Positions 6,263 through 59,916 of a stretch of 64,000 bases of DNA are shown piece by piece; the first letter of the stretch is position 1; the number at the start of each line of letters is the position of its first letter. The position numbers and the translations under genes are program-made. The notes beneath the pieces are model-generated. The model saw only the letters and a list, made by a program, of their open reading frames with translations, was not told where the DNA came from and did no database searches. Source of the stretch: Escherichia phage vB_EcoM_PHB13; sequence record MK573636; one strand, 5' to 3'.

Positions 6263-6790
6263 ATGGAATGGGAAGTTGGTAAAACTTACAAGATTGAATG
6301 CGAAGCGTCGAAAGCCGAACTGACTAAATTTTCGTCGTCTATTAACAGATGTATTGTTGACTTGTTGGCTGGTCGCCCGTTTAGGGTAGAAGACCTTGAC
6401 GATGATGGTGATGTTAGAGAAATTACTATTATTGGTAGTAATTTCGACTCTATGACGTTAAAAGAATCCCCTATTGGCTGTTCCGGTGTGTGGTTTTGGT
6501 CGGGTGAGCGTCGTTTCTTTACCGAAGTTACTATTGAACCTAAGATTCCAGATTCGGAAGAAAAAGAAGAAGACCTAACTTTAGAACGCCTGGGTCTGCT
6601 TATGGAAGCCTACGACATTCAGTTGATCGATAAGATGGGGTTACATAATAGCATTGCCAAAATTACTACCCTAGAAGGTATTAAGAGCGTGCTTGATGGT
6701 ATGCCTAGCCGGATCGGTGCTATCCGAGAATACAAGCAAACGCGCGACCGTATGATCCAATTAGAATCACGTATCAAAAATGAGAGATGA
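6263..6790 (+). CDS. hypothetical protein, repeat-domain family (MEWEVGKTY... / ERRFFTEV)
   Basis: ORF track 6254..6790, start moved to ATG. Confidence 0.55.
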   Translation: MEWEVGKTYKIECEASKAELTKFSSSINRCIVDLLAGRPFRVEDLDDDGDVREITIIGSNFDSMTLKESPIGCSGVWFWSGERRFFTEVTIEPKIPDSEEKEEDLTLERLGLLMEAYDIQLIDKMGLHNSIAKITTLEGIKSVLDGMPSRIGAIREYKQTRDRMIQLESRIKNER

Positions 6791-7271: not shown

Positions 7272-8096
7272 ATGAAATGGGAAATTGGTAAAACTTACAC
7301 CTGGAAAGACGAAAACGCTAAAACTGAGTTTATTACTAACGGAGAAGGTGTTCTTTCTCCACTTAACAGCGATATTAGTGCAGCTATTGGTGACAAGCCA
7401 TTTACCATCATCGAGATCGAGGGTAACGGTTGGATTGATGCAATAGAGCTAGACGGTGTTTATCATACGGCGAAAACTGCTACAGGAAAAGACATTTGGA
7501 AGTCAACATATTTGTTTAGTCCATTTGATAGAAAATTCTTTCGTGAAGTTGAAGAAGTTCCCCAGAAATGGGAAGTTGGTAAAACTTATACTTGGAAAGA
7601 TATTAAGGCTATGACCGACTTCTGTCATTATGCCGAAAACGTATCTAACCTTAATTATGTTATTGCACGAGCAATAAATTATAGACCTTTTACTGTTAAA
7701 AATGTTCGTCCATGTGGGCAAATTGATGTAATTGAAATTGATGGTAAAGACCATACTCTAATGAGCGCAACCGAAGATAGAGACCATAAAGGAACTAGCT
7801 GGTTTATTGATTCTGATAGAAAATTCTTTCGTGAAGTAGAAGAATTGGAAGTTATAACCACTGATTCTAAGATCGTTGGACAGTTGAAACGTCTGTTTAG
7901 TAGTCGTTACGGCCTGACAATGGTTAAATTTGGCGAAGCAAATGAAGGTAAAACCTTTGAACGTTTCGATGATTTCATTTCGGCACTTGACAAGATGGAT
8001 GAAATCATGCAAGATCGCCAGAAGATTAAAGACCTTCAAGAAGACATTAAACGTCGTGAAGTTGAATTTTTGATTGGTAAAGAGCGAGGATGGTAA
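7272..8096 (+). CDS. hypothetical protein, repeat-domain family with two tandem domain copies (WEIGKTYTWKD ... DRKFFREVEE, twice)
   Basis: ORF track; about 23-nt identical DNA repeat near 7528 and 7812. Confidence 0.6.
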   Translation: MKWEIGKTYTWKDENAKTEFITNGEGVLSPLNSDISAAIGDKPFTIIEIEGNGWIDAIELDGVYHTAKTATGKDIWKSTYLFSPFDRKFFREVEEVPQKWEVGKTYTWKDIKAMTDFCHYAENVSNLNYVIARAINYRPFTVKNVRPCGQIDVIEIDGKDHTLMSATEDRDHKGTSWFIDSDRKFFREVEELEVITTDSKIVGQLKRLFSSRYGLTMVKFGEANEGKTFERFDDFISALDKMDEIMQDRQKIKDLQEDIKRREVEFLIGKERGW

Positions 8097-13000: not shown

Positions 13001-13025
13001 CTCTAAAAATTGATTGGAGGTTGTT

Positions 13026-13271
13026 ATGGTTACTAATGCACTGAAAGAAATCAACGAAGGTTTGTCGAAATTCACTAAGATCCATGTATTTGAGGTTGTG
13101 CGAGATGGTCAGTATATGCTATCATTTCGGTCTAACTATGGTTTATGGACTCATGACGAAATCCCATTTGATCGTGAAAATATCACCAAAGAGTGGCTAA
13201 CAAACATCGTATCCCGTAAGGTTGCTGATATTACCCAGAATGTTATTGCTCGTGAATCGTGGAGTATGTAA
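13026..13271 (+). CDS. hypothetical protein
   Basis: ORF track 13014..13271, ATG start. Confidence 0.4.
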   Translation: MVTNALKEINEGLSKFTKIHVFEVVRDGQYMLSFRSNYGLWTHDEIPFDRENITKEWLTNIVSRKVADITQNVIARESWSM

Positions 13272-19818: not shown

Positions 19819-19850
19819 GAGTGTCTTTCGTAAGTGAAGGAGTTTATATT

Positions 19851-22529
19851 ATGTATTTTCTGTCATGTGAGCGAGTAGGTGATAAGATCTACGAGCGTTA
19901 TATTGATGATGCTGGACAAGAACAAGAGCGTTACGTTGAATATACGCCAACTTTATTTCATCATGCCGCGCCTGGTATGGTTACGAATTATAAAGATATC
20001 TATGGCAAGCCTTGCATTGCTAAAAAATTCCCCTCTATGAACGAGGCCAACAAATGGCGTAAAAAGATGGGGGAGATGGGGCAAGAGGCACTAGGGATGG
20101 ATGATTTTATCATCTCCTATCTGTCTGATACGTATAAAGGCGAGATTCGATATGACCGAAATAAAATCCGTGTAGCATGGGTTGATATCGAGGTCACTGC
20201 CCCAGAATTTCCTAAACCAGAAGAAGCGAAATATCCTATCGATGCAATTACGCATTATGATTCCGTACATGATCGTTTCTTTGTATTTGATTTGAAAGGA
20301 AAAAACGGTGAATCTTGGGAAGCAAGCAAGTCTATTCTTCGCCCAGATATTGTAGAACGTGTTGTTTATAACGTCTATGACACAGAAGATGAATTGCTGT
20401 TAGAATACATCCGATTCTTTGAGGAAAACCGACCCGTTGGTTTCACTGGCTGGAACACAGAAACATTCGATATTCCATATATCATTAAACGTATCAGTAA
20501 TAAGTTCGGAAGTAGAACCGCTAACCGTCTAAGCCCGTGCGGTAAGATTAAATCCCGAATCTCACAGGATGATTTTGGCAACGAGCGTGAAGCATTTACG
20601 ATCATGGGGATCGAAAGCCTTGATTATATTGACCTGTACAAGAAATTTAGCTTTACGACTCAACCAACATATGCATTAGATTATGTTGCTGAATACGAGA
20701 CAGGAATCGGTAAGGTTGATTATGATGGTCCGTTAAAGAAATTGCGTGATGACAACCATCAACTTTACATCGATTATAACATCGGCGACGTTGATCGTGT
20801 GCTGGCGATTGATAAAAAGCGTGGATTTATCGATCTGGTGTATAGCCTATGTTTCTATGCAAAGATTAAATTTAACCATGTTTATAACCCGATGAAAGTA
20901 TGGGATGCTATTATCTTCGGATCTCTGAAAGCTGAGGGTAAAGTAGTACCGGAAAATAAGATACAACCTAAGCAGACGTATCCAGGCGCATTTGTAAAAG
21001 AACCTGTGCCAAATGCTTACCGTTGGATGATGAGCTTTGACTTAACAAGTTTGTACCCATCTATTATTCGACAGGTTAATATTTCGCCTGAAACAATCGC
21101 TGGATCTTTTGATGCTGCACCGATGCACGAGTATATCAATAAAACTGCACCACGTCCTAGTGATGAGTATTCTTGCTCGCCTAACGGATGGATGTATCGA
21201 AAAGATATTCATGGTATCGTACCGATTGAGATTAAAAAGGTATTCGATCAGCGTAAGCAGTACAAAAACATGATGTTGGCATGTGATCGCAATGCTGAAC
21301 TATGTAAAGCGATTCTACACGATGAAAATCATGTTTATGGGGGAACCATTAGCTATAGCGTTGAAGTGCGTCACGACTTCGATGAAGCGTTTAAATCGAT
21401 GCTTTCTGAATTAAGTAAAGACGCCTTAGAGAAATTGCTGGAAGAATGTAAAGACGAGTCGATCTTGTGCAATACAAACCAGCTTTCTCGAAAAGTTTTG
21501 ATCAACTCCCTTTATGGTGCGTTGGGGAATCCTAAATTCCGTTTTTATGATCTCCGTAACGCTAGTGCGATCACACTGTTCGGTCAGCTTGCAATTCAGT
21601 GGATTGAGCGTAAGATTAACGAATACTTAAACGAGCTTTGCGGAACAACCGATTTTGCATATGTTCGTTATTGTGATACTGACTCCGTTTATGTGCTGGT
21701 TAACAATGTTGTTGATAAGGTTGGCGGGGAAGACCGTTTCGACGATACCGAAAAACTTGTTGACTTCCTTGATAATTTCGGTAAACATCGAATGGAACCT
21801 ATTATCGACAAGGGATATCGCGAGTTATGCGAGTACATGAACAACTATGAGCACTTGATGTTTATGGACCGCGAGGCAATTGCTGGTCCTCCGTTGAAAT
21901 CTGCGGGTATCGGTGGATTCTGGACTGGTAAAAAGCGTTATGCTCTTAATGTTTGGGATATGGAAGGAACGCGCTTTGCTGAACCTAAGCTAAAAATCAT
22001 GGGCTTGGAAACGCAACGTAGCTCCACCCCGAAAGCATGTCAGAAATCACTGAAAGAATGTATTCGCCGTATGTTGCAGGAAGGTGAAGAGTCATTGCAG
22101 GAATACTACGGTATTTTTGAGCAAGAATTTAGAAAACTTGACTATCTTGATGTTGCTGCGGTATCATCTGCAAACAACCTACAGAAATACAGCGATTCAA
22201 ACGGGTATCCGATTAAGGGTTGTCCGTATGCGGTTAAGAGTGTATTGTGTTATAATCGTAATGCTCGAAAATTCGGACTAGATCCGATTCGTGAAGGCGA
22301 GAAGGTTATGATTGTACCGCTGAAAGATCGAAATCCGTTTGGAGAAATCTGTTTTGGTTGGTTGTCCGGTACTCGTATTCCTCCAGAGATTGAAAGCGAG
22401 GTGTTAAAGTGGTTAGACTGGTCTTTGTTGTTTAATAAGACTTTCGTCAAACCACTGGAGAACATTACAACGGCTGCAAAGCTGCAATATGAAAAAGTGG
22501 CATCTCTTACAGACCTGTTTGACATTTAA
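19851..22529 (+). CDS. 43: DNA polymerase gp43 (family B)
   Basis: exo motif VDIEV, SLYPSIIRQVNISPET, polymerase motif CDTDSVYV; T4 gp43-like; start at ATG 19851. Confidence 0.95.
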   Translation: MYFLSCERVGDKIYERYIDDAGQEQERYVEYTPTLFHHAAPGMVTNYKDIYGKPCIAKKFPSMNEANKWRKKMGEMGQEALGMDDFIISYLSDTYKGEIRYDRNKIRVAWVDIEVTAPEFPKPEEAKYPIDAITHYDSVHDRFFVFDLKGKNGESWEASKSILRPDIVERVVYNVYDTEDELLLEYIRFFEENRPVGFTGWNTETFDIPYIIKRISNKFGSRTANRLSPCGKIKSRISQDDFGNEREAFTIMGIESLDYIDLYKKFSFTTQPTYALDYVAEYETGIGKVDYDGPLKKLRDDNHQLYIDYNIGDVDRVLAIDKKRGFIDLVYSLCFYAKIKFNHVYNPMKVWDAIIFGSLKAEGKVVPENKIQPKQTYPGAFVKEPVPNAYRWMMSFDLTSLYPSIIRQVNISPETIAGSFDAAPMHEYINKTAPRPSDEYSCSPNGWMYRKDIHGIVPIEIKKVFDQRKQYKNMMLACDRNAELCKAILHDENHVYGGTISYSVEVRHDFDEAFKSMLSELSKDALEKLLEECKDESILCNTNQLSRKVLINSLYGALGNPKFRFYDLRNASAITLFGQLAIQWIERKINEYLNELCGTTDFAYVRYCDTDSVYVLVNNVVDKVGGEDRFDDTEKLVDFLDNFGKHRMEPIIDKGYRELCEYMNNYEHLMFMDREAIAGPPLKSAGIGGFWTGKKRYALNVWDMEGTRFAEPKLKIMGLETQRSSTPKACQKSLKECIRRMLQEGEESLQEYYGIFEQEFRKLDYLDVAAVSSANNLQKYSDSNGYPIKGCPYAVKSVLCYNRNARKFGLDPIREGEKVMIVPLKDRNPFGEICFGWLSGTRIPPEIESEVLKWLDWSLLFNKTFVKPLENITTAAKLQYEKVASLTDLFDI

Positions 22530-22790: not shown

Positions 22791-23861
22791 ATGTCTGTAC
22801 TGGAAAAACTGAAAAAGAACTCTACCCTGAAAACTACTGCGGTACTGTCTAAATCCAGCTTCTTTAACGAAAAAACAAATACTCGCACTAAGATCCCGAT
22901 GCTGAATATTGCGTTTTCCGGTGATCTTAAAAAAGGCTTTCAATCTGGTCTGATTTTCTTTGCTGGTCCGTCTAAGCACTTTAAATCAAACATGGGATTA
23001 ACCTGTGTTAGTGCATACATGAAACAGAATCCTGATGCGGCTTGTTTGTTCTTTGATTCTGAGTTCGGTATTACTCCCGCTTATCTGGAATCTATGGGCG
23101 TAGATCCTGATCGCGTAGTGCATGTTCCAATCAAGAACATCGAAGAACTTAAATTTGAAATCATGAACCAGCTTGAGCAAATTACCCGTGAAGATAAAGT
23201 GATCATCTTTATTGACTCAATTGGTAACTTAGCAAGTAAAAAAGAAGTTGAAGACGCGATTAATGAGAAATCCGCACAGGATATGACGCGAGCGAAAGCA
23301 CTTAAAGGCTTGTTCCGTATGGTTACGCCGTATCTGACTATGAATGATATCCCGTGCATCGCTATTAACCACACTTACGAAACGCAAGAAATGTTTAGTA
23401 AGACCGTTATGTCCGGCGGTACGGGCGCGATGTACAGCGCGAATGAAGTTTTTATTATCGGTCGTCGCCAGCAGAAAGAAGGTACAGAGTTGACTGGTTA
23501 TGAGTTTATATTGAAGGCCGATAAGTCACGAACTGTTAAAGAAGGGTCGAAGTTCCCGATTGATGTAACGTTTAGCGGTGGTATTAACCCATATTCCGGT
23601 TTACTGGATCTCGCAATCGAGCTTGGGTGGGTCGTCAGCCCGTCGAAAGGTTGGTATTCTCGTTCCATTCTGAATACTGAAACAGGAGAAATGGAAACAG
23701 AAGAACGCAAGTTCCGTGCTAAAGAAACTAATAGTGTTGATTTTTGGAGACCGCTTCTGACTAATGATAAGTTTAACGAAGCGATTAACGAACACTATCA
23801 GCTGGGTCAAGTTATAAGCGATGAGGCAGTTGACAAAGAAGTCGAAGATATGTTAGCATAA
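22791..23861 (+). CDS. uvsX: recombinase UvsX (RecA-like)
   Basis: strong similarity to T4 UvsX (GPSKHFKSN, IAINHTYETQEMFSKTVM). Confidence 0.9.
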   Translation: MSVLEKLKKNSTLKTTAVLSKSSFFNEKTNTRTKIPMLNIAFSGDLKKGFQSGLIFFAGPSKHFKSNMGLTCVSAYMKQNPDAACLFFDSEFGITPAYLESMGVDPDRVVHVPIKNIEELKFEIMNQLEQITREDKVIIFIDSIGNLASKKEVEDAINEKSAQDMTRAKALKGLFRMVTPYLTMNDIPCIAINHTYETQEMFSKTVMSGGTGAMYSANEVFIIGRRQQKEGTELTGYEFILKADKSRTVKEGSKFPIDVTFSGGINPYSGLLDLAIELGWVVSPSKGWYSRSILNTETGEMETEERKFRAKETNSVDFWRPLLTNDKFNEAINEHYQLGQVISDEAVDKEVEDMLA

Positions 23862-23871
23862 CAATGGTAGT

Positions 23872-23896
23872 AAAGGGGCTACGTGCCCCTTTTTCA
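23872..23896 (+). terminator. intrinsic terminator AGGGGC-tacgt-GCCCCT plus T5
   Basis: read directly. Confidence 0.5.
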
Positions 23897-23916
23897 TATC
23901 TAGAGAGGATTATATT

Positions 23917-24234
23917 ATGGATAAGAAACCAACAAGTTTAGAAGAAGCACACAGCTTGATTCAAGAAGCAATGAAGACAGTTATCCAGGAACTGATAATT
24001 GTTGATGAAGAGGGAGAACATCATATTGTCTATATTCATAATGTTGAATACGATCCAGACACTAAAGGTATTGTGGTCGACTACTCCACGCCGTCAGATC
24101 GTGATGTGGTATATCCACACGTCATTAAGGCGTTAACCGCGCAGATCAAAGAAGCAGAAGAAAAGTTGAAAAAAGAAACTTTCTGGTATAAACTCAAGAC
24201 CTTTGTTATGCGTGTAGTTGGGGGCTATGTATGA
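23917..24234 (+). CDS. hypothetical protein (occupies the T4 gene 40 position)
   Basis: ORF track; position only. Confidence 0.35.
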   Translation: MDKKPTSLEEAHSLIQEAMKTVIQELIIVDEEGEHHIVYIHNVEYDPDTKGIVVDYSTPSDRDVVYPHVIKALTAQIKEAEEKLKKETFWYKLKTFVMRVVGGYV

Positions 24235-25643
24235 TTAAAACTATCTTTTCACAGTTGATTTACAATGGCGCATTCTTTACGAATGTATGGCCTCACCTTA
24301 AAGCGGACTACTTCACCGAAGACGAAGAAAAACTGATTTATAAGCTGATTAAAAAGCACGTAGACGAATATTCCAATATTCCTACGCCAACAGCATTACA
24401 GATTGCTTTAGACAAGGAGAGAGGCAATCAGACAACATATGAAGGGGCTAAAACTCTTCTTGATTCGCTTGAGAATACACCGGAAGACCTTGATTGGTTA
24501 ATGAAGGAAACCGAAAAATTTATTCGTGACCGTGCCATGTATAATGCAATGTCACGGGCGCTAGAGATTCAGGCGAACGCACAACTACCAAAAGAGAAAC
24601 AGAATAAGAAATTGCCGAGTGAGGGTGCTATTCCTGAGATCATGCAGGAAGCACTATCCATTACGTTTGATTCTGATGTAGGTCATGACTGGTTTAATGA
24701 CTTTGAAAAACGATTCTTGCTATATCAGACTAAGGCGAATAAGATCCCGTTTAAGCTGCCGATGTTGAATAAAATCACGAAAGGAGGTGCGGAAAGAAAA
24801 ACGCTAAATGTGTTGCTTGCTGGTGTAAACGTTGGTAAATCGCTTGGCTTGTGTTCTCTTGCTGCGGATTATATGGAATGTGGTTATGATGTATTGTATA
24901 TATCAATGGAGATGGCAGAGCATGTCGTAGCAAAACGTATCGACGCAAACTTGCTTGACATTACATTAGATGAATTGGATAATGGTAATGTTTCTTTTGC
25001 GGAATATTCCGCACGCATGAAGCGTGTTAAGAATAAGAAGATCGGAGATCGTCCGGTTGGAAAATTGATGATCAAGCAGTATCCGACTGGTGGCGCAAAC
25101 TCCAATCACTTTGAGGCGTTAATGAATGAATTGCGACTCAAGAAACAGTTTAAACCTGATGTTGTGATTGTTGACTATCTGGGGATTTGCGCATCGTCTC
25201 GCTTGCGTGTATACTCTGAAAATAGTTACACACTAGTTAAGGCGATTGCGGAAGAACTGCGAGGATTTTTTGTTAAGTGGGATGTTGTTGGTTGGACTGC
25301 GGCACAGACTACCCGCGCGGGTTGGGATGCTTCCGACCTTAACATGAGTGATACCGCTGAATCAGCAGGTCTTCCGGCTACTGCCGACTTTATGTTGGGT
25401 GTTATCGAAACCGAAGACCTGGCTAAAATGGGCGTCCAACTCATGAAGCAGATCAAGTCTCGTTACGGTGATAAGAACTATTATTCACGGTTTAACGTTG
25501 GTGTGAAGAAAGGCAATCAGCGTTGGTATGAAGTACCAAACCAGATCGCAGATCAGGAGAATACACAAGTTAAACCACAAAGCGCACAGCAAGCCGAGAA
25601 ACGCGAAAAACTCGACGAGCTAGCAAATACCATGACTTTCTAA
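24231..25643 (+). CDS. 41: replicative DNA helicase gp41 (DnaB-like)
   Basis: Walker A AGVNVGKS, RecA-like core; synteny. Confidence 0.85.
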   Translation: MIKTIFSQLIYNGAFFTNVWPHLKADYFTEDEEKLIYKLIKKHVDEYSNIPTPTALQIALDKERGNQTTYEGAKTLLDSLENTPEDLDWLMKETEKFIRDRAMYNAMSRALEIQANAQLPKEKQNKKLPSEGAIPEIMQEALSITFDSDVGHDWFNDFEKRFLLYQTKANKIPFKLPMLNKITKGGAERKTLNVLLAGVNVGKSLGLCSLAADYMECGYDVLYISMEMAEHVVAKRIDANLLDITLDELDNGNVSFAEYSARMKRVKNKKIGDRPVGKLMIKQYPTGGANSNHFEALMNELRLKKQFKPDVVIVDYLGICASSRLRVYSENSYTLVKAIAEELRGFFVKWDVVGWTAAQTTRAGWDASDLNMSDTAESAGLPATADFMLGVIETEDLAKMGVQLMKQIKSRYGDKNYYSRFNVGVKKGNQRWYEVPNQIADQENTQVKPQSAQQAEKREKLDELANTMTF

Positions 25644-33280: not shown

Positions 33281-34024
33281 TTGGAGAGAGAAAAAGTGAA
33301 CATCAAAAAGTTTATTGTTGATGTTCTGGAGGCGAAAAGCGGAAATAGACTAAACTCAAATCTTTTTAAAGAAAATAAAATTCCAGAAATGGAAAAATTG
33401 TATCCTGCGGAATTTCAGATTATAAGGAATGAGTTTAAGTTCTGTAATGGAGGTCTCAGAAATCAACAACCATATAACGAGGCTGTTTATAGATTGCGCC
33501 ACGGAATAACAGGAATAGTTAAATGTGCAAGATGCCCAAATCCCGTAAATTATCATACATACTCTAGAGGCTATCATAAATTTTGCTGTTCTCGTTGCGC
33601 ATCGTTGGACCAGGCACAAAACATAAAGATTGAACGAGAATGCGCTAAATGTGGTAAACCATTTGTTGCAATAAACGCATCTCAAAAGTATTGTTCTGAT
33701 GCGTGTCGATTGTTTGAGAAGCGAGAGCGAGAACTAGATAGGCCATATCATCATGCAGAAAATGGTATAAAAATATCAAAAAGAGAAGCGTTGGAAATTT
33801 TAGGTAGAGTTGACAATTGCGAGATATGCGGTGTAAAATTCATAAATGAACGATGCGGCGAGAGAAAACGCCAAAAGTGGAAACATCTTGACCATAATCA
33901 TAAGACTGGTAAGATAAGAGGTGTTCTTTGTGGAAAATGTAATGCCGGATTAGGAATGTTCAAAGACGATCCTCAAATATTATATGCGGCATTGGAATAC
34001 CTGAAACGAACTGACGGAGAATGA
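33281..34024 (+). CDS. HNH / endonuclease VII-family nuclease with Cys-rich zinc fingers (probable homing endonuclease)
   Basis: C-terminal motif LDHNHKTGKIRGVLCGKCNAGLG; AT-rich relative to flanks. Confidence 0.6.
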   Translation: MEREKVNIKKFIVDVLEAKSGNRLNSNLFKENKIPEMEKLYPAEFQIIRNEFKFCNGGLRNQQPYNEAVYRLRHGITGIVKCARCPNPVNYHTYSRGYHKFCCSRCASLDQAQNIKIERECAKCGKPFVAINASQKYCSDACRLFEKRERELDRPYHHAENGIKISKREALEILGRVDNCEICGVKFINERCGERKRQKWKHLDHNHKTGKIRGVLCGKCNAGLGMFKDDPQILYAALEYLKRTDGE

Positions 34025-54391: not shown

Positions 54392-54414
54392 AGGGGGGCT
54401 TTCGCCCCCCCCTT
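54392..54414 (-). other. G/C-rich intercistronic hairpin (GGGGGGG-cgaaag-CCCCCC) between gene 34 stop and gene 35 start
   Basis: read directly. Confidence 0.35.
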
Positions 54415-54417
54415 TAA

Positions 54418-57400
54418 TTAGTCTTCCCAGATAAAGTCTACGGTACGAGTCAGATTATTGGCGATGATTTTAACATTACCAACTTTGATCCAATCACGAA
54501 CCGTCATAGAGTTCATTAAACCACCTTCTGCAACTACTGCCCCGATTTCCTGAGCTGTAGGCTTATTCTGTTTGGTGTAAATTTCACCCCATGCGGTCCA
54601 TTGACCACCAGTACCGGAACGGATATAATGTTTATGAGTACCATCAGGGGACCAAAGCTGGGTAAGCCCGTCCGCGTCAGTACCCCATTGCATCAGAGTA
54701 CCGTTTTTCTTCTCTGGATAAGTTTCTTTGATGTTCTGGGTAGTAACTCGCATATTCCAGAAACCGATGTTACCGATTGCTGGAGCGGTTGCCGCGCTAG
54801 CTTCATGCTTAACAGAAACAATAGGCGCATTATCCATAGTCAGCTTACCGACCATTGTATCGCCAGCATTCTTAACAAACTGACGGTTAAGAACTTCGTC
54901 AGCGTTTCCTGCGTGTACGATCTGATATTTCTGTCCGGCGATCTCTGTAGTTAACGTTTGATGACCTGCCTTGATGTTAACACTTCCACCGTGCCCGATA
55001 TTCAGCATACCATCTGGGGAACGAGTCATTGCCGGATTAGACTGGTCAACAATGTATAAACCGCCTTGTTTCGCATACAGGTTACGACCTGCAATAAAGT
55101 CTCTATATGCTGTCGCGTCGCCATTGTGTTTCATAGCAAAGGCGTAATGCTCGACGACTCCACCATCATTGATTTTACCGAAAGCGATAGCATCACTATC
55201 AACAACTTGCGCTGTTCCAGTACCACCAACGATAATAGACCATGAGTTTTTCATGCCTTCCGATGCGGTTGTGCCATGCAGAGTAATTCCGGTGTGTCCG
55301 TCAACTCCACGCTCACCCAACACCAGATGACCATTACTCGGATCATCAGTAGAGTTCTTAGTCACAGACAGAGTTTCAAAGGAACCAGATTTTAAGCACT
55401 CTAAATCGCCCTTCACGTTAACGTTTTTATTAAACGTGTAATTGCTCTCTATGGTCTGGTCAATGTCTCTACGCGCCCATTTAGCGGCCTCTACGTTACC
55501 CAATTTCAAACTATTCTGAGCGGTTGCCATCTTAGGTAAGAAATTAGCAAGTGCGTAGTTTAATCCTTTAGGGGTAACAGCAATTCCGTCATGCTGGTAG
55601 TTTCCTAGTTCTTGAGTAGAACCTTGCAGATTATCACCAACAAAACAGTTTTCCTGAGTAGCAACTTTCAAGAATCCACGACGCGCTTCTGTTGCTTTCC
55701 ATGTATCCTCTGTCTGAACAACATATTTGAAGTTCTTCGGAGAAATTGCTACATTAGCCAGTGTACCAGCCACGGTTTCGGCTTGAGTACCAACTCGGAT
55801 AATACCTTCTTTACCTTCGGTGGCTTTTTTGCCTTGTAGCTTTTTAGGCGTGATGATTGTAGTATCATCTTGACCAGCATCCGTAAGCTGAGTAGTAGCA
55901 ACTTTAGCGACACCTTTTGTGTCTTCGGTTGCATCCAGACCGCTGATCATGATACCTTGCCACAAATCACCAGTAAGGTTAAGCCCCTGAGTCGGATCTA
56001 CTTTCAAACGCTGTGCATTCTCAAAGAAGGTTTTAATCTTCAATGGGGTAGAAATGCGAGCATCGTCAAGACCTGCGTCAAACTCCGGTTGAGTTGCAAT
56101 TTCTGCTAAACCATGTAAAGTTTCCGTTGCGCGGCGAGTATGCAGCTTTTTAGGCGTGATGATATGGTTATCACTTTGACCTAAGTTTGTTTCTTCCTGA
56201 GTTGCAATTTCAGCGATACCAGTGCGCGATTCTGTAGCAGTACGTTTCGTTAGCGTGCGAGTCGTGATTAGTAAAGCATCTTGCGGGGTTGATTCTGTAG
56301 CCCCTTGCACTTCCGCGTCAGTTGCCAGATAGCCAACACCACGGGAAGTTTCGGTCGCCTTGACTTCGTTGATGTTTTGTGGCGTAACAATTTTAGCATG
56401 GTCGTTGATGTTATAGATCCCTGTACCAGCTTCGCCACGTCGAGCGGCAGCACTACCGCCAACCTGAACAATTTCAGCAATACCAGCGAGATCTTCGGAA
56501 GCGCGACGTTCTTCTAATTTCTTAGGAGTTATTGCGCGAGTATCGTCTAAACCTTCGTTGGTTTCATGTTGAGTTGCAATTTCCATCACACCACGACGGG
56601 CTTCGGTAGCAACACAATCATTTAACTTTTTAGGCGTAACGATAACATCATCCAGGAAGCTGGAACCAGTATCTTGATGCGTTTCCGCTTGAGTCGCAAT
56701 GCGAGCAATACCGCGTCGAGTTTCGTTGGCGGTTTTATTAGCCAGCATTTTTGGTGTTACCGCAACTTCGTCGCTAGGATTCTCTTCATGATTTTTATTC
56801 GTTTCAGTCTGGGTAGCCAGTGCAATTACACCAACACGATCTTTACGAGTCGGATCTACTCGTTCTACAATCGGGTGAGCATGTGCCACCAACCAGTATT
56901 TCTTACCATCATCAACTTCTGAATAAGAGAACTCCAGATAAGGTACATAATCATTTGCAGCGTTGAAAGACAATTCAGACACTCCCGTCCATGTATCGGT
57001 CCCATTGAATGGGTACTCGCTACGCTTAGGAAACTGAACCATGTTTTTCTGAATAAGGATTTTTGTATCCTCTGTGGCGGTGATAATACGGCAATTCTGG
57101 TTTCCTTGCATATACTGCATAGAAACTTGAATACGATCACCCTGCTCGACATTGGTCGGCAGCGTCAGAGTAACATCACGATCACCAAATACAGCAACAT
57201 AGCTATTAGGTTGCAAGCGAGTGTCATCGATGATCGGTTTAAGACGAACAGACTGATCACCATCCCACAAACGCCATAAGTTTTCCGTCTTGTCAAAGAT
57301 GAATACACCATGACCGCTACGCTTACCGATAATCTCTTTTAGACCGGACGTGCCAATTGATTGTTCTTCTGCGTGCTCATGAACTTTAACCGTAACGTGG

Positions 57401-58158
57401 TTGGTTGCGGTTAATCCGTCAAGGTCTGTAGTCTGGATCATGTCGCCATTGTTGGCAAACTTAGGAAGCACTAAGGTAATATTACCCAACGAACTACGAC
57501 GAAATACCTGATCACCATTCTGCATTTGAATAGCATCAATCGCTGGCTGTGCGTACACACCGCGCGGCTCTGTTCCCGTCTGATAAACATGCCAACGATT
57601 CCGAACAAAGATGAAATAGTTCATTGCATACGGGGTAGTGCAATACCATTTTCGGTTATACACATTACCGTTATGGTAAAACTCATGTCCTGAACTCAAG
57701 AACGATAATTCGTTAACACCACACTTGCCACCGATATCTTTTACTGTTATAGTGTCTCCCTCTGCTGGTTTAGTTGGCATAGAGAAAGTCAAGTTTGCAA
57801 ATTGACCATCTGCTGCGATATAATCACCAGACTTTAAAGGAGTATCACCGGAAGTTGCTGCAATATAATCCCAACGTGGGTCAGTGCGCAGTGCTTGCCA
57901 TTTAGTCGGGTCAAAATCACCTGCTGGCTTTGTGATATCTTCTTTTGCATAATACGGACGGTTTTGATAGATTGTAGTTCCGTATTGATCATAACCGCGA
58001 GTTGTGTCATACTGAGTAATACCATTATGGTAATTGAAAAATTCAACGTTGACCGCATCCGTTGATGTGTTTTTATCTGCGTATGCTACATTGACGACCT
58101 TTTCATTACCAGCGTCAAAGCCAAATGTGGCCTTGAAATGTTGAGAAAAATCTGCCAT
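54418..58158 (-). CDS. 34: long tail fibre proximal subunit gp34
   Basis: 1246 aa; extensive similarity to T4 gp34 (RGIARIATQAET..., GLAEIATQPEFDAGLDDARISTPLKIKT, C-terminus VGNVKIIANNLTRTVDFIWED). Confidence 0.9.
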   Translation of the reverse strand: MADFSQHFKATFGFDAGNEKVVNVAYADKNTSTDAVNVEFFNYHNGITQYDTTRGYDQYGTTIYQNRPYYAKEDITKPAGDFDPTKWQALRTDPRWDYIAATSGDTPLKSGDYIAADGQFANLTFSMPTKPAEGDTITVKDIGGKCGVNELSFLSSGHEFYHNGNVYNRKWYCTTPYAMNYFIFVRNRWHVYQTGTEPRGVYAQPAIDAIQMQNGDQVFRRSSLGNITLVLPKFANNGDMIQTTDLDGLTATNHVTVKVHEHAEEQSIGTSGLKEIIGKRSGHGVFIFDKTENLWRLWDGDQSVRLKPIIDDTRLQPNSYVAVFGDRDVTLTLPTNVEQGDRIQVSMQYMQGNQNCRIITATEDTKILIQKNMVQFPKRSEYPFNGTDTWTGVSELSFNAANDYVPYLEFSYSEVDDGKKYWLVAHAHPIVERVDPTRKDRVGVIALATQTETNKNHEENPSDEVAVTPKMLANKTANETRRGIARIATQAETHQDTGSSFLDDVIVTPKKLNDCVATEARRGVMEIATQHETNEGLDDTRAITPKKLEERRASEDLAGIAEIVQVGGSAAARRGEAGTGIYNINDHAKIVTPQNINEVKATETSRGVGYLATDAEVQGATESTPQDALLITTRTLTKRTATESRTGIAEIATQEETNLGQSDNHIITPKKLHTRRATETLHGLAEIATQPEFDAGLDDARISTPLKIKTFFENAQRLKVDPTQGLNLTGDLWQGIMISGLDATEDTKGVAKVATTQLTDAGQDDTTIITPKKLQGKKATEGKEGIIRVGTQAETVAGTLANVAISPKNFKYVVQTEDTWKATEARRGFLKVATQENCFVGDNLQGSTQELGNYQHDGIAVTPKGLNYALANFLPKMATAQNSLKLGNVEAAKWARRDIDQTIESNYTFNKNVNVKGDLECLKSGSFETLSVTKNSTDDPSNGHLVLGERGVDGHTGITLHGTTASEGMKNSWSIIVGGTGTAQVVDSDAIAFGKINDGGVVEHYAFAMKHNGDATAYRDFIAGRNLYAKQGGLYIVDQSNPAMTRSPDGMLNIGHGGSVNIKAGHQTLTTEIAGQKYQIVHAGNADEVLNRQFVKNAGDTMVGKLTMDNAPIVSVKHEASAATAPAIGNIGFWNMRVTTQNIKETYPEKKNGTLMQWGTDADGLTQLWSPDGTHKHYIRSGTGGQWTAWGEIYTKQNKPTAQEIGAVVAEGGLMNSMTVRDWIKVGNVKIIANNLTRTVDFIWED

Positions 58159-58209
58159 TATTGGGTCTCCTGTTATAATATGAAATTATTTATTATGTGA
58201 GGTGTTGTT

Positions 58210-58774
58210 GTGGCAAAAACAAAATTTTGGGATATCGAGACACAGAAAGCGATAAAAGGTAGATTTTATCATGTTGATGGAATATTATACCATTTAAAGG
58301 ATTCTGTATCTGCTGGATTCCGAAAAGAAGGGTCCAGATACAAAAAAAGGTGATGTGGTAAGGGTACGTCTCCATAAAGAAGGATATTTATACTTTACAT
58401 TTTATAACAATGGTCATAAACTTAATCTGTTTGTACATAGAGTTGTCTGGTTTTTAGAGTATGGTACTCAGGTTGAACTAATAGATCACATAGACCAAGA
58501 CAAAACTAACAATAGACCGTCAAACATGAGAGAAGCAACAGAACAGCAAAATCAGTTTAACGTCTCAAAGAAAAAGGCTTGCCATAGCAAATATAAAGGT
58601 GTATCATTATCAACAAGCAAGAAAAAGCCGTGGAAGGCGTATATTGTTATCAATCGAAAGAATATACATCTAGGATACTTTGAGACAGAAGTTGAGGCGG
58701 CTAAGGCTTATGACCGTGCAGCACATGAAAGAGTTGGCGAGTATGCTTATTTAAATTTTCCAAAAAGAGGATGA
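58210..58774 (+). pseudogene. HNH-AP2 homing endonuclease split by frameshift at an A7 tract (N-terminal fragment about 58210..58353, HNH+AP2 portion 58355..58774)
   Basis: HNH motif HRVVWFL...IDHIDQDKTNNRPSNMRE and AP2-like YKGVS...WKAYI...GYFETEVEAAKAYD; removing one A near 58342-58348 joins the frames. Confidence 0.5.
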
Positions 58775-58780
58775 TATATT

Positions 58781-58966
58781 ATGGTTAAAGTTGATTTGTC
58801 AGAAGGTGCAAAATGGGTAGTTGACAGAATCCCTGATAAGGATTATAATTATTTCCGTGCCGAATTAAACAATGCAATTCTGCGAGTTATGGAAAAGTAC
58901 GGGTATGACCGTGAAGTATCTAACTCGTTTGGTGAATATGTTGTTGTGAGAGTGGAGAGAACTTAA
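58781..58966 (+). CDS. hypothetical protein
   Basis: ORF track, 61 aa. Confidence 0.35.
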   Translation: MVKVDLSEGAKWVVDRIPDKDYNYFRAELNNAILRVMEKYGYDREVSNSFGEYVVVRVERT

Positions 58967-58968
58967 TT

Positions 58969-59916
58969 ATGACGTATAACCCGTTTACAAAAACTACCGC
59001 TACACTTAATGATTTCTTCGATGATCCAGAAGATAAACTGCCGGAAGGTGTGCATTTGATTGATATGTCGCAGCTTATGATTGCTACTATCTCGCATACC
59101 TTTAAACCGGAAGATCCTATTAGTGAAGGTATGATCCGTCATCTTATTCTTGACACCATGCGTTATAATATGACAAAATTCAAAGAGCAATACCCAATTA
59201 CGGTACTTGCCTTTGATTCAAGCAAAGGTTACTGGCGACGTGATATCGCACCTTACTATAAACGCAACCGTAAGGAAAAACGAGACGCAGATCCGCGTGA
59301 TTGGGAGATGATCTTTGCTGCGATCAATAAGATCACCGAAGAGTTTAAAGAGAACATGCCTTATCACGTTATTAAGGTTGACAAAGTTGAAGCAGATGAT
59401 ATAATCGCTGTGTTAACTAAAAAGTTTTCTGTAGAAGGTCGCCAGGTGCTAATCAACTCCGGTGATGGTGACTACACACAGTTGCACAAATACAAAAACG
59501 TGAAACAGTGGGCACCAGTACAGAAAACATGGAAGAAGTGCAAATATGGTAGCCCATACAAAGACCTTATGGTAAAATGTGTTAAGGGTGACGCAAAAGA
59601 CGGTGTAGCTTCTATCAAGTGCCGTAGTGATTTCATTATCTCACGACTGGAAGGGGAACGAGCTAAACCAATTGCAACCAAATGGTTAGAGCAAATTTTC
59701 GATGCCGAAGATCCAAAGTCTTTGATGACAGAGGAAGAAGCACGACGCTTTGACGAAAACCGCGAACTTATTGATTTTGAATTTATTCCTGATAACATCG
59801 AATATGAAATTTTGTTAGCATGGGAGAAATCTAAACCAGCACCACGCGGTAAAATTTATAACTATTTTGTAACAAATGCGTTAGTTAAAATGTTGCAGAA
59901 AATTGGTGAGTTCTAA
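58969..59916 (+). CDS. rnh: RNase H (5'-3' exonuclease, FEN family)
   Basis: strong similarity to T4 RNase H (GYWRRD, EADDIIAVLTKKFS, GDGDYTQLHKY, PRGKIYNYFV). Confidence 0.85.
   Translation: MTYNPFTKTTATLNDFFDDPEDKLPEGVHLIDMSQLMIATISHTFKPEDPISEGMIRHLILDTMRYNMTKFKEQYPITVLAFDSSKGYWRRDIAPYYKRNRKEKRDADPRDWEMIFAAINKITEEFKENMPYHVIKVDKVEADDIIAVLTKKFSVEGRQVLINSGDGDYTQLHKYKNVKQWAPVQKTWKKCKYGSPYKDLMVKCVKGDAKDGVASIKCRSDFIISRLEGERAKPIATKWLEQIFDAEDPKSLMTEEEARRFDENRELIDFEFIPDNIEYEILLAWEKSKPAPRGKIYNYFVTNALVKMLQKIGEF

Follow-up and report, generated by a model that had tools for sequence, protein, structure and literature searches.

A homing endonuclease gene split at a seven-A tract in Escherichia phage vB_EcoM_PHB13: a probable recent mutation in a decaying mobile element

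Next to the long tail fibre gene 34 of Escherichia phage vB_EcoM_PHB13 lie two short open reading frames (ORFs) that join into a single homing endonuclease gene (HEG) when one adenine is removed from the run between them. Is the additional adenine a sequencing error, a mutation in a decaying HEG, or a site at which slippage permits expression of the full-length protein? A first-pass annotation, made from the sequence alone, named these three causes without choosing between them. The locus was analyzed here within 64,000 nt of sequence record MK573636 (the window), which belongs to an RB49-like T4-type coliphage of the genus Krischvirus.

The split gene and its product

The two ORFs are pieces of one gene, split at an A7 tract and offset by +1 in the ORF list of the window. 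The first-pass annotation had placed the ORF starting at GTG 58210 and the ORF 58355..58774 in different frames, and both ORFs are indeed present with that offset. The run between them, anticipated near 58342-58348, is exactly A7 there and is the sole A7 of the 64-kb window by homopolymer count. The features of the gene are:

58199..58212, plus strand: Shine-Dalgarno sequence GAGGTG (58199-58204), 5-nt spacer and GTG start codon (58210-58212), read from the sequence
58210..58353, plus strand: 5' fragment of the HEG with GTG start, 47 aa, ending in TGA (58351-58353) and holding codons 1-46 of the intact protein
58342..58348, plus strand: A7 homopolymer, the frameshift site; A6 (TAC AAA AAA GGT, Y-K-K-G) in 23 of 25 other copies
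58355..58774, plus strand: 3' fragment of the HEG with internal GTG start, 139 codons, carrying HNH_3 and AP2
58430..58555, plus strand: HNH_3 nuclease motif (VHRVV ... IDHID ... N ... N), residues 74-115 of the intact protein (Pfam PF13392; I-HmuI, 1U3E)
58586..58738, plus strand: AP2-type DNA-binding domain, residues 126-176 of the intact protein (Pfam, PDB search, Foldseek)

The 5' fragment ends with AAA AAA AGG TGA, of which AGG TGA is a product of the frameshift. Removal of one A gives an ORF of 564 nt; the fusion predicted earlier thus holds, with a length of 187 aa in place of the roughly 185 aa proposed. The repaired protein equals P0129 residue for residue, a protein that is intact in four other datasets. 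The product of the 3' fragment matches exactly the GenBank entry QBQ74273.1, annotated as 'homing endonuclease' of phage vB_EcoM_PHB13. The deposited CDS of 139 aa represents no more than the 3' part of a 187-aa gene with a frameshift; its annotation calls for a pseudogene flag or a new check against reads. An antisense ORF of 60 aa (58193..58375, hypothetical in phage FL20) lies within the conserved coding sequence of the HEG without independent support, and was rejected.

Both domains assigned to the downstream frame by the first-pass annotation were recovered. On the 139-aa ORF, Pfam HNH_3 (PF13392) scores 46.9 bits (E = 2e-12) against a cut-off of 24.8, and the residues H76, D92, H93, N101, N105, and N114/N117 are invariant or nearly so in the alignment of homologues. 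The Pfam AP2 model stays just under its cut-off of 33.3 (29.7 bits, E = 8e-7). A phmmer search of the PDB matched plant AP2/ERF domains (E = 6e-8 to 6e-5), and in Foldseek the C-terminal domain aligns with the AP2 domains of TEM1 and AtERF1 with an rmsd of 1.2-1.7 Å (1.2 Å for TEM1). The plant proteins (AtERF1, 1GCC; TEM1, 7ET4; WRI1, 7WQ5) are 37-43% identical to the C-terminal domain of the HEG; they are, however, transcription factors, whereas the AP2 domain of the HEG is joined to a nuclease and belongs to a mobile element of a phage.

The upstream frame is part of the HEG as well, as intact orthologues, conservation in homologues and a structural model indicate. A lack of conservation in this frame, which the first-pass annotation had named as evidence against a split gene, did not occur. 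Homologues with 47-55% identity (P0002-P0007, RB49p040) align from residue 3 on and retain the N-terminal motif K-x-W-D...Q..I+.R..H.DG.LYH...S......G..YK.GD. Over the N-terminal 47 residues identity is about 50%, and Gly47, the first residue after the A tract, is invariant in an alignment of 15 sequences. An AlphaFold2 model built from 61 homologues has a mean pLDDT of 94.3 (91-98 for residues 11-50) and predicts a helix (9-18) and a hairpin (19-28), followed by the beta-beta-alpha core. In Foldseek the model has its top PDB fold match in I-HmuI (1U3E), an HNH homing endonuclease, and its C-terminus is matched by AP2 domains. As the N-terminus is conserved and modeled within the I-HmuI-like nuclease fold, the frameshift falls within the nuclease domain. 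Missense variants also occur as singletons, such as G47C at the otherwise invariant glycine (P0130).

The locus is therefore a free-standing HNH-AP2 HEG, in which an AP2 DNA-binding domain follows an HNH nuclease domain similar to that of I-HmuI. This class is known from T4-related phages, with one member in RB49, two in JSE, three in RB43, and six in RB16 (PMC1524935; PMC2993671 Table 5, citing Magnani et al., 2004). The HEG shares the HNH_3 and AP2 architecture, a length of about 185 aa and the phage group with RB49ORF040c, the 'HNH(AP2)' genes of RB43 and RB16 and the HEGs of JSE, and the window copy differs from the class in being frameshifted. RB49p040 (RB49ORF040c) is 49% identical to the intact protein over its full length, but occupies the site between gene 47 and a-gt.4, whereas the present HEG is found at the gene 34/rnh site, where RB49 has no copy.

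The resemblance to I-HmuI of phage SPO1 is one of fold (Foldseek E = 4e-4, 109 columns, rmsd 2.7 Å), with a sequence match over residues 44-159 and a D-H...N catalytic motif common to both. In contrast to the HEG, I-HmuI is intron-encoded and carries helical, HTH-type DNA-binding modules at its C-terminus instead of AP2, and the two are only 23% identical. By analogy, the HEG is expected to work, or to have worked, like HNH enzymes of the I-HmuI type, tethered by an AP2 domain that reads the sequence. Its family membership suggests that the intact protein would cleave HEG-less alleles site-specifically and thereby home, and it would presumably cut HEG-less genomes near the gene 34/rnh locus.

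Genomic context of the insertion

The HEG is located in an intergenic spacer between divergent neighbors:

54418..58158, minus strand: gene 34 (long tail fibre proximal subunit), left neighbor, divergent from the HEG
58152..58179, plus strand: candidate sigma-70-like promoter (CTGCCA, 16 nt, TG-n-TATAAT), matching the consensus at 10 of 12 positions with an extended -10 TG
58194..58760, plus strand: approximate extent of the HEG insertion, judged against Krischvirus genomes that lack the HEG (RB49, MIZ6, and others)
58781..59916, plus strand: right neighbors, a conserved 61-aa ORF (orf61, 58781..58966) and rnh (58969..59916), intact here and in all related loci

The insertion takes the place of approximately 21 nt of the spacer between gene 34 and orf61. 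In the alignment with MIZ6, homology on the left stops after ...TATTTAT and resumes on the right at AAAAGAGGATGATATATTATGG, and the HEG ends in K-R-G-stop, codons that overlap the Shine-Dalgarno sequence conserved ahead of the next ORF. The element of about 565 bp is present in only 8 of 58 related Krischvirus phages in GenBank; the other 50, RB49 included, match the flanks only. An intergenic insertion that some close relatives carry and others lack is the hallmark of a free-standing HEG. Across genomes the HEG is 98.8-99.8% identical, while the gene 34 flank is only 88-93% identical, and this higher conservation of the HEG compared to its flank fits a recent horizontal spread. The candidate promoter directly upstream may drive the HEG.

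The insertion also borders on a predicted late promoter of gene 34. In HEG-less genomes (MIZ6) a perfect TATAAATA precedes the gene 34 ATG by 28 nt. In the HEG carriers homology ends exactly at this motif (58159-58200, minus strand), which reads AATAAATA in the window, or CAATAAATA. Judged from these motifs, the insertion may slightly alter late transcription of the tail fibre gene.

Alleles of the HEG and recurrent disruption

The comparison of orthologues that the first-pass annotation had suggested reveals an intact ancestral state. Besides the window, 25 copies were collected: 18 Logan/ENA loci, retrieved by exact-protein look-ups, and seven copies from GenBank. The tract is A6 in 23 of these and A5 in the remaining two (L016/L017, from DRR831796 and DRR831793), which leaves A7 to the window only. 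Six GenBank orthologues (PTE-Eco09, ELT4, KFS-EC, FL15, pEJ01, and G37-3) combine A6 with an uninterrupted frame of 187 codons, annotated as a single CDS in five of the six. The haplotype of the window, recognizable by a private Ser34 codon and an A at 58195, is intact with A6 in DRR770853, ERZ27297797, and ERZ28635246. With A6 in most copies and the window haplotype intact elsewhere, A7 is derived, recent and unconserved.

The 47-aa peptide specific to A7 was absent from a collection of 15 billion proteins. A scan of IMG/VR with a pattern spanning the A tract gave no matches, and a scan of JGI metagenomes with an 18-mer beside the tract gave 29, all by chance and none with the HEG according to blastn. 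The element was thus seen only in GenBank phages and Logan/ENA assemblies.

Two allele types can be distinguished among the copies: the I-type, represented by the six intact GenBank orthologues, and the R-type, to which the window belongs. R-type alleles, including that of the window, have one T fewer than the I-type in the spacer between Shine-Dalgarno sequence and start codon. The types also differ by five non-synonymous changes (R43I, R53C, L90R, T135P, and R174I, at window positions 58337, 58367, 58479, 58613, and 58731) and about four synonymous ones; L90R adjoins the catalytic IDH motif. Within the R-type we counted 11 synonymous and 2 non-synonymous point substitutions, the nonsense change described below excluded, which indicates that the HEG was under purifying selection until recently.

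The R-type has been disrupted repeatedly. At least five independent lesions, that of the window included, occur on five haplotype backgrounds:

A7, a +1-nt change in the A tract: window
A5 in the same tract: L016/L017, counted as one event on account of their common haplotype
TAC to TAA at Tyr27: L015 (SRR23253384), on the background of the intact L026
one additional A in GGGTAACG, some 20 nt 3' of the tract: phage FL20
an 11-nt deletion (58428-58438) with loss of His76: L032 (ERR11478199)

This census of truncated copies is biased by ascertainment, as it rests on 15 listed members of a protein cluster of 27. None of the 8 I-type sequences is broken. That all five knock-outs are found in the R-type may reflect a difference in activity or cost between the types, or merely sampling. 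The neighboring genes (gene 34, orf61, rnh, those for a CYTH protein and DsbA, and those for gp33 and gp59) are full length in every locus. Two of the five lesions are length changes of the A6 tract, the longest homopolymer in the HEG, suggesting that the tract is a hot spot of replication slippage. We also considered whether lesions cluster at the N-terminus in a way that saves the 139-aa ORF, and discarded the idea: two of the five destroy this ORF, and the sample, restricted to the members listed, is biased by ascertainment.

Origin of the seventh adenine

A real and recent slippage mutation in a decaying HEG is, in our assessment, the probable explanation for the split gene, and confidence that the A7 is a genuine mutation is, if anything, slightly higher. 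Of the three causes put forward in the first-pass annotation, decay of a homing endonuclease has the best support: the HEG is disrupted in four further independent ways, and the window is otherwise without a broken gene. The locus shows what is expected of a degenerating HEG, namely a lesion set against constrained intact orthologues, independent lesions in sister lineages and intact neighbors. The intact reading frame of a functional HNH-AP2 HEG is missing from the window copy, of which the product is 47 aa. The window copy is a pseudogene member of the free-standing HNH-AP2 class.

In the proposed course of events, the HEG would have spread horizontally through these phages, to which it is dispensable, and would now be subject to loss by random knock-outs in several lineages. 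This would correspond to the degeneration phase of the homing-endonuclease life cycle, in which invasion is followed by relaxed constraint and then by random knock-outs; the Goddard-Burt model reportedly describes a cycle of invasion, degeneration and loss. In the window, A6 would have become A7 by a +1 insertion in the longest homopolymer of the HEG, most likely through replication slippage. With A7 the frame is lost after codon 46, with a stop two codons on, so that standard decoding does not yield the full-length 187-aa nuclease. This would make the window HEG a very young pseudogene. Some residual expression is possible but would be incidental, through a +1 ribosomal slip of tRNA-Lys on AAA-AAA-AGG ahead of the rare codon AGG, through loss of one A in transcription or, for the 139-aa truncated protein, through re-initiation at GTG 58355. 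The truncated products are presumably non-functional as nucleases.

The strongest competing explanation is that the phage truly carries A6 and an intact 187-aa gene, and that the deposited genome owes its extra A to a miscalled homopolymer. We consider this unlikely, though it has the better part of the remaining probability. Homopolymers are the classic site of indel errors, and the window stands alone with A7 among 26 copies. Three other datasets contain, with A6, a haplotype that equals that of the window at all remaining variable positions, and the A7-specific 47-aa product was not found elsewhere in the 15-billion-protein collection. A literature search on vB_EcoM_PHB13 yielded no paper giving the sequencing platform. 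Against a miscall, no other window-specific indel breaks a gene in the 64 kb despite 34 other A/T runs of at least 6 nt, which argues that the assembly is not prone to indels. Moreover, the same HEG is broken in four other independent ways in sister genomes, including lesions outside homopolymers (the nonsense codon and the 11-nt deletion), so that a real knock-out is likely here a priori. Taken together, the evidence points to a biological origin of the A7 rather than a base-calling error.

The statement on indels derives from an alignment of the whole window to PTE-Eco09, RB49, and MIZ6. The other long runs of the window comprise 22 A6, 9 T6, 2 T7, and one C8, and none is linked to a broken gene. 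Relative to the three reference genomes, only ten window-specific indels are not a multiple of three. Seven of the ten are intergenic, among them an adjacent compensating pair (53145/53154), and two further indels of non-3n length, in a G6...C8 hairpin at 54393-54412, are intergenic as well. One lies in a divergent coding stretch amid neighboring indels, another is placed between genes or at the end of one, and the tenth (13259) alters nothing but the final few codons of a small ORF. This nucleotide census was used because a tblastn frame-switch screen of reference ORFs missed the HEG, tblastn having read through in one frame; the frame switches which that screen did flag were spurious antisense ORFs or variants of ORF ends, and were dismissed.

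Several of these sites deserve a brief description. The change at 13259, unlikely to be disabling, is a window-specific 1-nt deletion in ORF 13014..13271, a homologue of RB49p038 from a small conserved family of ORFs, which ends ...IARESWSM* in the window and ...IARGSMGSVR* in PTE-Eco09 and RB49. The hairpin at 54393-54412 (G6-CTTTCG-C8) is terminator-like and lies just downstream of the gene 34 stop (minus strand), between tail-fibre genes. It reads G5...C5 in PTE-Eco09, RB49, and MIZ6 and is thus polymorphic in length on both arms; its C8 is the longest homopolymer of the window. A frameshift in a reference genome was also encountered: PTE-Eco09 (at about 10222, window position 7790) is one A short (CATAA-GGAAC) compared to the window, RB49, and MIZ6, which truncates the PTE-Eco09 homologue of RB49p049 (window ORF 7272..8096).

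Much less probable than a miscall is that the A6 tract serves as a contingency (phase-variable) site, a reversible on/off switch rather than a step in one-way decay. Replication slippage would then produce subpopulations with A5, A6, and A7, of which the out-of-frame alleles would be leaky (+1 at AAA-AGG in A7, -1 at AAA-AAG in A5), and the phage population could tune the expression of a costly or self-toxic nuclease. The R-type would, on that assumption, have been silenced repeatedly as the more active form.

Nor do we favor the idea, to which we assign a still smaller chance, that the 139-aa product, with HNH motif and AP2 domain and made by re-initiation at GTG 58355, is itself the selected form, for example as a DNA-binding or regulatory protein or an altered nuclease. 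In a census biased by ascertainment, three of the five lesions (A7, A5, and the Tyr27 stop) precede GTG 58355, and the 139-aa ORF that they spare is identical. The GTG follows the TGA at 58351-58353 by one nucleotide with AAGGTG just upstream, a geometry that suits termination-reinitiation. However, the lesions of FL20 and L032 destroy the 139-aa ORF too, the spacing between Shine-Dalgarno sequence and GTG 58355 is only 2 nt, and residues 1-48, which are absent from this form, are conserved and predicted to be integral to a confidently folded nuclease domain. The 139-aa protein, which may bind DNA, is in our opinion a by-product rather than a selected function.

Least credible is programmed recoding, in which the tract would allow a low, regulated level of full-length nuclease through slippage or frameshifting and so limit toxicity. 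The sequence would lend itself to this: in A7, tRNA-Lys could re-pair by +1 from AAA (58345-58347) to AAA (58346-58348) before the rare AGG, giving the wild-type Y-K-K-G-D, and loss of one A in transcription would likewise restore it, whereas in A5 a -1 slip at AAA-AAG would do so. Two of the five disruptions alter the length of this one tract, and Baranov et al. (PMC1088944) mention that some 'authentic frameshifts' are rescued by slippage. The A-rich slippery run joining two frames is also reminiscent of E. coli dnaX (A-AAA-AAG, -1), prfB (+1), IS3/IS911, and the A9 of Thermus dnaX. In contrast to these frameshift-dependent genes, the site is unconserved among the orthologues of the HEG, 23 of the 25 other copies being in frame with A6, and a +1 shift is needed without a prfB-like stimulator; no Shine-Dalgarno-like element is present at the prfB-type distance (3 nt upstream) of A7. 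A classical -1 frameshift at an A-AAA-AAG heptamer gives the wrong frame for A7, which requires +1 (or -2), and was rejected. With its 7 nt, A7 falls short of the 9 nt typical of slippage sites and of the approximately 9 nt at which, in most bacterial genomes, selection against transcriptional slippage becomes evident (PMC1088944). The three other knock-outs (the stop codon, the extra A outside the run and the 11-nt deletion) are beyond rescue by slippage, which implies that loss of function itself is tolerated. With A7 in 1 of 26 copies and a run below that length, the slippage-dependent expression envisaged in the first-pass annotation is left without support.

The decay of the HEG has precedents, such as the I-TevIII ORF, truncated in T4 and intact in RB3. 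'Relic' HEGs are tabulated in PMC2993671 (Table 5). These precedents resemble the present case as dispensable selfish nucleases hit by random lesions, with intact copies in sister genomes. The window lesion differs in being a single nucleotide and evidently very recent, as an identical haplotype exists intact. The turnover of HNH-AP2 HEGs seen here is of an ordinary, already known kind, without departure from known kinds, and it changes no concept. With a near-identical element, empty sites and at least five knock-outs, the locus offers a compact snapshot of the homing-endonuclease life cycle in Krischvirus, and would be suitable for work on what HNH-AP2 elements cost and how they turn over.

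A 247-aa ORF (33281..34024, plus strand) directly upstream of the topoisomerase gene 39 has a C-terminal Endonuclease_7 domain of HNH type (Pfam E = 5e-16). The segment of about 800 bp that contains it is present in MIZ6, where it is annotated as 'endonuclease VII', and missing in both PTE-Eco09 and RB49. The ORF is intact and probably represents another free-standing mobile nuclease gene of the window, besides the HEG. In PTE-Eco09 (23497-24674) the annotation divides the DNA polymerase gene 43 into two CDSs, with an insertion of about 1.1 kb containing small ORFs between them; the gene is uninterrupted in the window (ORF 19821..22529, 902 aa; site at 21041-21053), RB49, and MIZ6. Several related contigs (L015, L016, L024, and L026, at about 6370-6564) have an extra HNH_3 gene of 198 aa right after the gene 59 homologue, which the window and PTE-Eco09 lack. 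This is a further presence/absence polymorphism of a HEG in the same neighborhood.
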